Source: Halobacteriaceae archaeon
GTDB lineage: Archaea; Halobacteriota; Halobacteria; Halobacteriales; Halobacteriaceae
Reading direction: 5' to 3'
Assembly (NCBI GenBank): GCA_042216675.1
Contig: JBDGTS010000022.1
Span: 13,924-33,859, forward strand
Length of the DNA: 19,936 bases
Shown here: positions 14,105 to 19,907 of the stretch, piece after piece
Layout of the letters: the number at the start of each line of letters is the position of its first letter
Position numbering within the stretch: position 1 is the first letter of the stretch
Notes under the pieces: generated by a model
Database searches by the model: none
The model's input: the letters and a program-made list of their open reading frames with translations, nothing else
Told to the model about the DNA's origin: nothing
Program-made: the position numbers and the translations under genes

Positions 14105-14178
14105 GGGCCGATAGCTCAGTTAGGGAGAGCGTCTGACTCTTAATCAGACGGTCGGGGGTTCAATTCCCTCTCGGCCCG
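14105..14178 (+). tRNA. tRNA-Lys (anticodon CTT)
   Basis: Acceptor stem GGGCCGA/TCGGCCC, D arm GCTC..GAGC, anticodon arm TCTGA-CT-CTT-AA-TCAGA (CTT at 14139-14141), T loop GGTTCAATTCC, no encoded CCA. TATA-like CCTATAT at 14071-14077. Confidence 0.97.
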
Positions 14179-14279
14179 CTTTCTGACGAACGGAGTGAGT
14201 CGAACGCGGCACGAGCGGAATTGAACGAGAGAACGTGAGCGAAGCGAGCGTTCGCGTGGTTCAATTCCCTCTCGGCCCG
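14157..14279. repeat. tRNA-3'-end-derived repeat element: exact 22-bp direct repeat (14157-14178 and 14258-14279), an intervening degenerate inverted copy (~14205-14226) and two hairpin-loop motifs
   Basis: GGTTCAATTCCCTCTCGGCCCG occurs twice. GAATTGAAC (14218-14226) is the reverse complement of GTTCAATTC. The loop motifs are GAACGGAGTGA (14188-14198) and GAGCGAAGCGA (14237-14247). Confidence 0.9.
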
Positions 14280-14419
14280 TCCCGCTTCCAGTCGGGTGGT
14301 GTTTCGTGCGATTCCCCGGATTCTACCTCTCGGAGACGGTGACCGACCCGTTCCTCGTGAACCGCCGGCCGCCAGCGGTGTGGCGCCGCTGCGACCCCGG
14401 GCCGCTCGCCGTGCCGGAG

Positions 14420-14827
14420 GTCCGATGGCATCCCAGCACCCGTCGGTGAGAGGCGGGTCCGAGGACGACGGCGGGTCTGGCTCGCCATCGGCCGCCGTCC
14501 GCTCTGCACAATTCGAGTTGCGGCGGGTCGCGCCGTACACAACCGTGCCCGACGCGGTGGCGAGGCCCCGCGGCGCTATTGATGCTGTCGCGGGGATGCG
14601 CGCCCGGTTCGTGAACTGCCGCGCGAACTCGCGCGCGACTGCCTACCGCATGTCGCCGCCGCCCGTCGCAGGCTACAGCGTCTCGCTCATGCTGTACCCG
14701 AACAGGGAGAACTGCCCGATGCCGACGAGGACCACGACCGCGATGGGGCACGGCCACCCCAGCACGAAGTCCGTCGCGTCTATCGCCGCGTCGAGATGGA
14801 ACCACGAAGTCGCGGTTTCGGTGCCAT
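14420..14827 (-). pseudogene. Decayed small membrane-protein gene resembling pleolipovirus internal membrane (matrix) protein VP3
   Basis: ATG 14827 gives MAPKPRLRGSISTR. After a frameshift near 14785 it reads IDATDFVLGWPCPIAVVVLVGIGQFSLFGYSMSETL*PATGGGDMR*AVA...FTNR, with in-frame TAG at 14673-14675 and 14643-14645. The 3' boundary is approximate and the VP3 similarity is from recall. Confidence 0.6.
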
Positions 14828-14927
14828 ACTGCGGTCGGAGGCTTCGCGGAGAGGGGTCTAAACCTCGGTAATTGAATATTTTGTTGGTACTCAGAAGGGG
14901 AGAATTGTGTCTGGGGAGTTTAGCGCA

Positions 14928-14941
14928 TGAAAAATGAAAAC
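14928..14941 (-). terminator. T-rich tract (TTTTCATTTTTC on the minus strand) downstream of the pilin gene
   Basis: Oligo-T runs about 20 nt after the pilin stop, typical of haloarchaeal terminators. Confidence 0.45.
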
Positions 14942-14960
14942 CGCAAATCGGCGAAGGTCG

Positions 14961-15512
14961 TTACGAGAGCGTCACGGTCTGGTCGACGACCGTGGACTCA
15001 GACGGCACGTGGATGATTTCGATGACGTAATCCGTGCCACTGCTAAGTTGGGTGTCGGCCGTAGTCCCGTTAGTGTCTCGAATCGTCATCGAATCCCCAA
15101 CCCCGAATGAATCGCCAGATTGCCAGTTAGCCGTGTCACCGTTCACTTGGATTTCGAGGTCGGTGTTACCACTCGACCAGCTTCCACTCTCCCAAGTAGC
15201 GATTACGGAGCCAGCAGTCGAGCGAATGTTCACTTTGATGTCGTCGTGGGCCAGCGAATCACCGTTGTTGTGGGACAGGACGAACATGTCGAACGCGCTG
15301 CCCGACGCGGTGCTGTCTTGCGCGTCCTGAACGCTAATTGAAGCCGTTGGCGCCGTGTTTCCGACGTTTTGCCCCAGTCCCAGCACGAAGGTCCCGATGA
15401 CCGCCGCCAGAATGACCGTAATGGCCACCATCAGGATGACCCCGATGACGGGGGACACCCCGGTCTTGTCCTCGATGAATGCCGTGTAGCGCTCTTTGAG
15501 TTCGTTGATCAT
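14961..15512 (-). CDS. pilA: Archaeal type IV pilin (Pilin_N/DUF1628, PilA type)
   Basis: Class III signal peptide KTG|[29 protein letters not shown], the conserved haloarchaeal PilA H-domain, followed by AP.AS, H.NGD and a C-terminal IIHVPSES. One N-glycosylation sequon (NGT). Start taken as ATG 15512 (MINELK). Confidence 0.93.
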
Positions 15513-16047
15513 GGTTTGTTTTGGATCGTAGCTTCCATATCGCACGGCCATCGGAAAAGAGGGCCGGGGAAACAGTTTAGCCGCGACCGCTACGTGACTA
15601 GCCCCGTCAGCCAAGGAGGTACTCTTCCACCCTCACCCGGCCGCGCCCCCGTTCTTTTCCGACGCCCGTGTTACCTCCCCCTCTAACGGCCACTCCCATA
15701 TACTTTCCTGTCGTTCGGGTGCGGTAAGAAGACCGACGCGCGTCAGACACGACGGCCCGGATGCCCCGCGTCGGGGCGTCCAGCCCCGAGTCGGCGCACG
15801 TCCTCCTGTCACTGCAGCACTTCGTGGGCATCGGGACCGCGCAGGCTGCGACCGGCCGCGAGCGGTCCCCTGTCGCACGGCACGGCCCTGCTGGCTCGGG
15901 CGTCACCCCGACTGCTGTGTGTTCGTGAGTACTGCCCTGCCGTCGGCCCGACTTCGGGAACGCCCCCCGAGCGCGACTGCGGGCCGTCCTCGGCCCGACC
16001 ATCGTCTCCCGCCTGCAGAGCGGACAGGGGTACCCGTCGGCGGACGG

Positions 16048-16728
16048 TCACGGCTCTTGTTCCGCGGGGCCGGCAGTCGGGCCGCCGATGTCGAGGGAGA
16101 ACTCCTCGTCTTCCGACACCTCGCTCGTCATCCCCGTCGTCATGATGAGGCGGAGGCCCTCTTTCACCGAGAGCCCACTCTCGTGGACGTGTTCCTCCGG
16201 AACCATCATGAGCGCCCCGCCGGTCGGGTTCGGCGCCGAGGGCGCGTACACGAAGAAAGCGTCTTGCTCCTCCATCTCCCGTAGTTTCTCCGGCGCGTCA
16301 CCGGTCACGAAGCCGAGGGAGTACACGCCCATCCGCGGGTACTCGACGATGACCACGTCCTCGAAGCGGGTCGACCGGTCGCTCAGCGAGGACGCCACCC
16401 CCCGGATGCCGCCGTAGACGGCGCGGAACAGCGGGATGAAGCTCACGAGACGGCCGATGCCCCCGAGCGTCCGCCGGCCGACGCTGAGTTGCGCGACGAG
16501 GCCGACGACGGTGATGAGGACGAGGATGCCCACGAGCGCCAACAACTGCGCCGCGAGTTCGATGTTCGCCGTGTAGGTGGCGAGTTGGGTCCCGCTCACG
16601 ATGGGGTCGACGACGCCGACGAGCCAGTCGAACGCGAACTTGAAGACGAACAGCGTCACCAGCAGGGGGCCGAGGATTATCAGTCCGCCGACGAAGCTGT
16701 CACGGACAATACTCTTGATGCGCTTCAT
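16048..16728 (-). CDS. DUF502 family membrane protein
   Basis: FVGGLIILGPLLVTLFV, IPLFRAVY, VIVEYPRMGVYSLGFVT, PSAPNPTGG and SVKEGLRLIMTTG; start ATG 16728. Confidence 0.9.
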   Translation of the reverse strand: MKRIKSIVRDSFVGGLIILGPLLVTLFVFKFAFDWLVGVVDPIVSGTQLATYTANIELAAQLLALVGILVLITVVGLVAQLSVGRRTLGGIGRLVSFIPLFRAVYGGIRGVASSLSDRSTRFEDVVIVEYPRMGVYSLGFVTGDAPEKLREMEEQDAFFVYAPSAPNPTGGALMMVPEEHVHESGLSVKEGLRLIMTTGMTSEVSEDEEFSLDIGGPTAGPAEQEP

Positions 16729-19733: not shown

Positions 19734-19907
19734 GGGGCTGTGGCCAAGCCAGGAATGGCGACTGACTCCAGAGGCTACAGCGCCAGGGACGAGGGACTGA
19801 TATACCGAGCGGACGGCTGATCACCGGCCGCGTTGACGACCCTCTGGAGTCCCGAGGCGCTCACCGGAGATATCAGTCGATCGGGGGTTCAAATCCCTCC
19901 GGCCCCA
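19734..19907 (+). tRNA. tRNA-Trp (anticodon CCA) with a 100-nt intron at 37/38 (19772-19871)
   Basis: Acceptor GGGGCTG/CGGCCCC-A, anticodon arm ACTGA-CT-CCA-G|intron|A-TCAGT, T loop GGTTCAAATCC. TATA-like TTTACA at 19704-19709. Confidence 0.96.
19772..19871 (+). ncRNA. Intron-encoded box C/D guide RNA directing 2'-O-methylation of C34 and U39 of pre-tRNA-Trp
   Basis: C box GGGACGA 19786-19792, D' CCGA 19805-19808, C' TTGACGA 19833-19839, D CCGA 19852-19855. Guide CCTCTGGAGT pairs with 19765-19774 and guide GACTGATA pairs with 19871-19878. The N+5 rule lands on C34 (19768) and U39 (19873). Confidence 0.9.

Follow-up and report, generated by a model that had tools for sequence, protein, structure and literature searches.

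A probable eroded betapleolipovirus-like provirus with an intact pilin gene beside a haloarchaeal tRNA-Lys gene

The window is the whole 19,936-nucleotide stretch of DNA that was analysed. On the right of its tRNA-Lys(CUU) gene it carries a hairpin cassette, several minus-strand gene fragments and an intact type IV pilin gene. The fragments and the pilin gene were compared chiefly with C30, another contig of the window's own genome (G000). The features of the locus, in window coordinates, are as follows.

14105 to 14179, plus strand: tRNA-Lys(CUU) (ARAGORN; Rfam tRNA, 69.9 bits)
14180 to 14278, plus strand: hairpin cassette of about 100 nt with an inverted degenerate T-arm copy, ending in a 21-nt copy of the tRNA-Lys 3' end (repeat search)
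14316 to 14450, minus strand: frameshifted scrap of a VP4-type spike gene that also contains a stop, spanning roughly codons 561-606 of the 696 (blastn/tblastn)
14451 to 14612, no strand assigned: GC-rich DNA between the two spike scraps, holding a 12-nt identity to the TNRA codons (global alignment)
14613 to 14661, minus strand: spike 5' end, about 15 nt of upstream sequence and about 11 codons, start codon changed from GTG to GTA (C30 match)
14660 to 14827, minus strand: membrane-protein pseudogene, codons 1-56 of 138 (C30 alignments, phrog_3232 match)
14828 to 14875, minus strand: sequence 5' of the pseudogene, including the TATA-like TTTAGA of 14862-14857 (aligned with an identical or nearly identical C30 block)
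14961 to 15614, minus strand: intact proviral type IV pilin gene, longest open reading frame 217 codons (Pilin_N, C30 collinearity)
15654 to 15711, minus strand: pilin upstream region, the last stretch collinear with C30 (77.6% over 58 nt, C30 11544-11488)

What is the broken frame beside the tRNA gene? On the minus strand it opens at the ATG at 14827-14825 and reaches a stop after 15 codons; the reading TETATSWFHLDAAIDATDFVLGWPCPIAVVVLVGIGQFSLFGYSMSETL*PATG... carries on one frame over from the frame of that ATG. The preliminary description of this DNA had taken it for the fossil of a pleolipovirus small membrane-protein gene, and this identification stands on two matches. In a PHROG profile search, the read-through translation of the fossil matches phrog_3232 alone (E 4.2e-5, 25 bits), a weak and short match that pairs fossil residues 39-78 with profile positions 5-44 of 135. 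In a blastn search of the genome, 14875-14660 matches an intact 138-codon gene on contig C30 (G000:C30:10208-10624) with 83.4% identity over 217 nt (E 1e-59 genome-wide), and the fossil and this paralog share 72% protein identity over 54 residues. The fossil reading searched directly against phage records by tblastn gave nothing relevant, the one match being to a Ralstonia phage at E=4. The C30 gene, which was found by a phrog_3232 search of the genome, matches that profile at 1.3e-27. By tblastn its product matches HHPV3 VP1 and HHPV4 VP9 at 5-6e-6 and HRPV-13 at 6e-3, and all five phage records that it matches are pleolipoviruses. HHPV3 VP1 itself matches phrog_3232 at 3.4e-43. A better match to a cellular membrane protein was sought, and Pfam and NCBIfam returned no cellular family for the fossil or for the C30 paralog. 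Out-of-frame and plus-strand open reading frames at 14160-14871 and 15607-16284 gave nothing above noise in Pfam, the best match being DUF5818 at E 0.02. The broken frame is a pseudogene of a betapleolipovirus small virion membrane protein of the HHPV3 VP1 / HHPV4 VP9 type (PHROG 3232).

HHPV4 VP9, the equivalent of HHPV3 VP1, is described as a small membrane-associated structural protein with four predicted transmembrane helices (PMC5867852). The two viral proteins belong to phrog_3232, are encoded directly upstream of the spike gene and are 31% identical to the C30 paralog over residues 14-90. In contrast to these full-length genes, the window copy comprises codons 1-56 of 138, is frameshifted and carries a nonsense mutation; it is not an open gene of about 135-150 codons with four transmembrane helices. 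Its position directly upstream of the spike gene (phrog_2231) is preserved through spike scraps that are collinear with C30. The more specific assignment to an HRPV-1-type VP3, made in the preliminary description, does not hold. HRPV-1 VP3, the internal membrane protein of an alphapleolipovirus, is likewise a small membrane protein encoded just before the spike gene VP4, and the HRPV-1 proteins VP4, ORF6 and VP8 have PHROGs in common with the C30 spike, p224 and NTPase. However, HRPV-1 VP3 falls in phrog_5900 only (1.1e-61), whereas the fossil, its paralog and HHPV3 VP1 fall in phrog_3232. The 18% identity of HRPV-1 VP3 to the C30 paralog extends over 84 residues of the C-terminal half, which is absent from the fossil. 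In alignment, the motif given for VP3 in the preliminary description (D..D.(I/V)LG...VGIG.FSL.G...TL...W...TN) is carried by the C30 paralog; HHPV3 VP1 follows it loosely, and HRPV-1 VP3 lacks it.

The similarity to the C30 gene extends upstream of the coding region, and about 48 nt on the 5' side of the ATG belong to the 217-nt match. The TATA-like TTTAGA box noted earlier is present at 14862-14857, inside the block GGTTTAGACCCC, which is identical in the window and C30 copies. This region may have served as a promoter, to judge from its sequence.

The pseudogene carries a frameshift, a nonsense codon and a truncation. The frameshift is a single missing base in codon 2, directly after ATGGC (ATGGC-ACC in the window against ATGGCAACT in the C30 alignment). 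The first TAG, at 14675-14673, corresponds to Trp52 of the intact copy (TGG>TAG). The membrane-protein homology ends at 14660, in codon 56, and the match to the spike 5' end begins at the adjacent base, so that the two matches abut at 14660/14661. We therefore consider that one deletion, about 449 bp long when measured against C30, fused the pseudogene to the spike start and took codons 57-138 together with most of the intergenic spacer, as the alignments indicate. The spike 5' match (14661-14613 against C30 10006-9959) amounts to 79.6% identity over 49 nt and on its own is marginal (E 9e-4 genome-wide); in local alignment this segment scores 46 against the spike gene and 25 against the membrane-protein gene. 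Because homology switches to the spike gene at 14661, the second TAG at 14645-14643 and the tail read as AVA...FTNR are out-of-frame spike 5' sequence. The broken frame as first described thus keeps its start, its one frameshift and its first TAG, in place of TGG, but not its extent to 14420, since the homology stops at 14660, and its second TAG is not a lesion of the membrane-protein gene.

A second spike scrap lies at 14316-14450 and matches C30 8174-8308 with 72% identity over 136 nt (blastn, E 6e-12 genome-wide). At the protein level it scores 34.7 bits in tblastn, a value that none of 200 shuffles reaches. The earlier statement that spike, Rep and integrase genes are missing must be amended for the spike, of which these two scraps are present, and is correct for the other two: neither an integrase nor a replication gene occurs in the window. 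The DNA between the scraps, 14451-14612, matches nothing significantly, either elsewhere in the genome or among 56 loci, and the open reading frames that overlap it have no Pfam match. A global alignment had suggested that the membrane-protein gene ran on to a TNRA motif with a second Trp>TAG change, a model that was dropped after local alignments. That alignment shows a 12-nt identity between 14612-14601 and the TNRA codons of the paralog, which is out of order with the spike 5' match. It is either a chance match or the trace of a rearrangement; by our rough estimate, such an identity would have a chance of a few per cent.

The reference for these comparisons is a complete betapleolipovirus-like provirus at about 2200-14650 of C30. 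Its genes stand in the order DUF7845/phrog_3288, p124, Zot-like NTPase (phrog_1979), phrog_3526, phrog_1938, 696-codon spike (phrog_2231), membrane protein, Pilin_N protein, phrog_14115, wHTH regulator and tyrosine integrase. Identities to HHPV3/HHPV4 are 27% for the DUF7845 protein, 46% for p124, 51% for the NTPase, 43% for p273, 23% for the spike and 31% for the membrane protein, and the integrase shares 48% identity with its HHPV4 counterpart. Six window segments match this provirus with order and strand kept; they begin in the region upstream of the pilin gene and reach to about spike codons 561-606. On C30, no tRNA was found in a search that excluded introns. Positions 303 and 14641 of C30 share a 12-nt repeat, a weak att candidate on a contig where repeats that long are frequent (25 families). 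The DNA between p124 and the NTPase gene contains a perfect direct repeat of 55 nt (C30 4932-4986 and 5087-5141, spaced 155 nt).

The pilin gene of the window has likely starts at ATG 15551 or 15512. Its product matches Pilin_N (PF07790) at 79.1 bits against a cut-off of 25.2 and TIGR02537 at 43.4 bits against 20. The translated N-terminus resembles a class III signal peptide and is presumably cleaved where archaeal type IV pilins generally are. The window and C30 pilins are 52% identical over 192 residues, end to end, and the window segments 15711-15654, 15582-15343 and 14986-14929 are collinear with C30 11544-10755. The pilin therefore belongs to the remnant and is proviral, and the neighbourhood that had been described as a tRNA-Lys/pilA locus is in this respect part of the viral DNA rather than host context. 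The GC content is 53-60% over 14800-15700 and about 68% around it. The pilin gene is the only intact gene of the remnant, which is about 1.4 kb long.

At the site itself, a DHH-protein gene adjoins tRNA-Lys throughout the family, and the conserved backbone runs from DHH and tRNA-Lys to IMPDH. The gap between the tRNA and IMPDH genes is 513 bp in G031 and 1.7 kb in G001; in the window it measures 2.75 kb and is taken up by the cassette, the remnant and a DUF502 gene. In a further genome, G003, a phrog_3288/DUF7845 gene that is 51% identical to that of C30 (G003:C1 2888-4519) lies 0.9 kb from the orthologous tRNA-Lys, and none of six other open reading frames tested within the next 5.5 kb has a PHROG match. 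This gene probably represents a further remnant at the tRNA-Lys site. The genome sets searched contain no genome of the same genus for comparison of an empty site or a sister locus. A scan of metagenome contigs with the pilin returned one weak locus (37% over 55 residues) and no close relative. Also in the window, near its end, a tRNA-Trp(CCA) gene interrupted by a 100-nt intron is predicted at 19734-19907 by ARAGORN when introns are searched for, but not in its default mode, and the 3' end of this gene is a third, 83% copy of the repeat designated D9.

Integrase, NTPase and replication genes are all missing from the window, and tblastn with the C30 p224, p273 and NTPase proteins gave nothing at E<0.1 there. 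The core genes are absent save for the pseudogene and the spike scraps, and the element is therefore a remnant rather than a provirus. Its right border lies between 15711 and 16048. A far-side att site or copy of the tRNA end is absent from 15560-16100, where the best match is 9 nt long; the right border and the integration event are therefore ones that we infer. On the left, the remnant abuts the copy of the tRNA-Lys 3' end at 14258-14278.

Does this copy mark the integration site? The 21-mer GGTTCAATTCCCTCTCGGCCC occurs exactly twice, at 14157-14177 inside the tRNA gene and at 14258-14278, and none of 200 shuffles matches this. Together with the second copy, the 80 nt that separate the two make up a unit also present behind other tRNA genes. 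Every such cassette combines an inverted T-arm copy with a central hairpin, which is conserved, and with a direct copy of the 3' end of its own tRNA. When cassettes are counted as matches to the last 18 nt of a tRNA with at most two mismatches, 49-336 nt downstream, they follow 15 of the 32 intron-less tRNA genes (tRNA-Lys included) and two with short introns, in one to three copies each. The other cassettes recorded in the genome are these.

C45 10509-10703: tRNA-end cassette
C25 10626-10828: tRNA-end cassette
C16 3830-3933: tRNA-end cassette
C2 103845-103939: tRNA-end cassette
C8 about 15980-16170: tRNA-end cassette

The cassette folds as a long hairpin of unexceptional energy (z -1.67; 12 of 200 shuffles fold as well). 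Rfam recognizes the tRNA alone at the locus, with one sub-threshold match on its reverse strand, and has no match for the cassette. Because the 21-bp repeat belongs to a cassette family, it is not evidence for a proviral attL/attR pair. Either 21-bp copy may have been the target of the provirus.

Similar truncations occur in other genomes. Of 401 genomes that were sampled to represent the order, 165 have matches to phrog_3232. Among the best 150 of the 245 matches, shortened copies of the membrane-protein gene end at residues 77-111, and the following were recorded.

G055, beside a tRNA-Arg gene with its own cassette: intact pilin gene (152 codons) and membrane-protein residues 1-77
G061, in a partly deleted provirus at a tRNA-Ala gene: intact pilin gene (153 codons) and membrane-protein residues 1-91 fused in frame to residue 75 of the NTPase
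G197:C1 3653-3895 and G147:C1 3692-3922: membrane-protein residues 14-94 in an open frame of 240-256 codons
G365 and G122: other shortened copies of the membrane-protein gene

The G061 provirus is laid out as tRNA and DUF7845 on the plus strand followed by p124, NTPase, membrane protein and pilin on the minus strand, the same orientation as in the window. G197 and G147 are two species of one genus and are 95.5% identical over a 693-nt stretch; the G197 copy lies beside tRNA-Tyr and the G147 copy beside an integrase. Instead of a fossil, this open frame may represent a fusion gene that has been conserved. That the shortened copies have a recombination breakpoint or a pseudo-att site within the gene in common is speculation, as their junctions show no shared sequence except within one genus.

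We propose, with a probability of roughly 85%, that the segment from 14279 to about 15711 is an eroded SNJ2/HHPV3-like (betapleolipovirus) provirus that was once integrated at tRNA-Lys(CUU) and of which the pilin is the sole intact gene. The earlier suggestion that a largely deleted provirus left a remnant beside tRNA-Lys is supported by the C30 collinearity, the pseudogene and the spike scraps. The provirus would have sat at the tRNA gene with its morphogenesis genes pointing to it. Deletions would then have taken the replication module, the NTPase gene with the genes next to it, almost the whole spike gene, the regulator/integrase end and the 3' 60% of the small membrane-protein gene. What would be left over is 56 dead codons, two spike scraps and an intact pilin gene with its own upstream region. 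The membrane-protein fossil itself would do nothing. The targets of SNJ2-type integrases are tRNA 3' ends; pleolipoproviruses or their remnants are reported to make up 33 of 38 such elements (PMC5861418), and the same source explicitly reports remnants of SNJ2-type pleolipoproviruses at haloarchaeal tRNA genes. Like those proviruses, the window element has betapleolipovirus core genes beside a tRNA 3' end, but it has no integrase, accessory genes or second att core, and its tRNA-side repeat belongs to a cassette.

Could the block have reached this place without any integration here? It might have been copied or recombined from a provirus elsewhere in the genome, such as one like that on C30, by illegitimate or homologous recombination. 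A related intact provirus does exist in the same genome, the locus has neither attR nor integrase, and a cassette family unrelated to the provirus accounts for the tRNA-end repeat. However, identity to C30 of only 72-83% shows that the block is no recent copy of that element, its orientation to the tRNA is that of the tRNA-gene proviruses of G061, G055 and G197, and tRNA 3' ends are documented targets of SNJ2-type integrases (PMC5861418). We thus regard transfer from another provirus as unlikely.

It is less probable still that the gene is intact in the organism and that the lesions arose through faulty sequencing or assembly of a metagenome-assembled genome. The G000 assembly is fragmented (58 contigs, 80% complete), and the two sequencing runs that hold the stretch, X1 and X2, come from one study and are possibly the source samples of G000. 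Against this, the Logan contigs of X1 (depth about 23) and X2 (about 10.6) were built independently and are identical to the window over 14141-15450: they show no differences and no gaps over 14141-14736 and 14709-15450, and no variant is listed in 14280-14960. The check for sequencing errors thus reproduces the lesions in both runs. Moreover, a base-calling error could not have removed codons 57-138 and almost the entire spike gene. A third run from another study, X3, covers only conserved parts of the tRNA and of the pilin N-terminus and is uninformative on this organism. RNA datasets holding the stretch: none are listed.

Two further observations concern coding function. TAG ends two of the six conserved genes of the window and is found in frame inside none of the six, and it is therefore an ordinary stop here. 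Differences from the C30 copy are distributed over the three codon positions as 5/8/14 in the pseudogene (54 codons) and as 7/3/31 in the pilin gene (60 codons), a pattern that is consistent with constraint on the pilin and relaxation on the pseudogene, with the provisos that the numbers are small and that most of the divergence predates the decay. Accordingly least probable of all, at close to zero, is the idea of a stand-alone domesticated VP3 gene that still yields a working short membrane protein, for example by TAG recoding or a programmed frameshift: the TATA-like upstream region is kept and N-terminal halves survive elsewhere, including the 95.5% identical copy of two congeners in its frame of 240-256 codons, but the frameshift lies in codon 2, a nonsense codon follows in an organism whose neighbouring genes use TAG as a normal stop, codons 57-138 are missing so that one of four transmembrane segments would remain, and the differences from the paralog spread over all three codon positions.

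The provirus remnant leaves the pilin as the one point worth follow-up, because it has outlived its provirus. What could such a pilin do for the cell? The SNJ2 products ORF10a/b are two functional type IV pilins that are assembled by the host machinery, dispensable for SNJ2 and dominant on the cell surface, and 16 of 51 SNJ2-like proviruses are reported to carry pilins (PMC12426801). Similar to SNJ2 PilA1/PilA2, the window pilin is encoded by a Pilin_N gene of a betapleolipovirus-type provirus just upstream of the morphogenesis genes; unlike them, it no longer has a provirus around it. It may still be in use and, by analogy with the SNJ2 pilins, would be assembled by the pilus machinery of the host. 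Such use would entail processing by PibD and assembly by PilB/PilC into filaments on the cell surface. The genome has six T2SSE-type ATPase genes. It has three Pilin_N genes above the cut-off, and the best two, those of the window and of C30, are both provirus-derived.

The locus would serve as an example of a provirus decayed to its one host-useful gene, an outcome that fits the report that host cells come to bear mainly pili built from the pilins of SNJ2-type proviruses (PMC12426801). Published examples already exist both of pleolipoprovirus remnants beside tRNA genes and of pilins carried by proviruses. A bolder and quite tentative reading, to which we give clearly less than even weight, is that the locus is a snapshot of domestication in which a provirus-borne pilin was kept by the cell while the surrounding virus was deleted. 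This runs in reverse of the host-to-virus pilin capture that has been proposed (PMC12426801). Were it general, haloarchaea would owe some of their chromosomal pilin genes to decayed pleolipoproviruses. For annotation, the gene labelled pilA beside tRNA-Lys is viral in origin, and the 21-bp tRNA-end repeat is not to be counted as a proviral att site. An intact pilin gene together with a 5' stump of the membrane-protein gene is also found in two other species, G055 and G061. In the taxonomic family, 22 phrog_3232 loci came from 15 of 56 genomes. Ten of these loci, those of the window and C30 included, have a pilin gene near the phrog_3232 gene, upstream on the same strand in eight and divergent in two; it is absent within 1.5 kb in the other 12.
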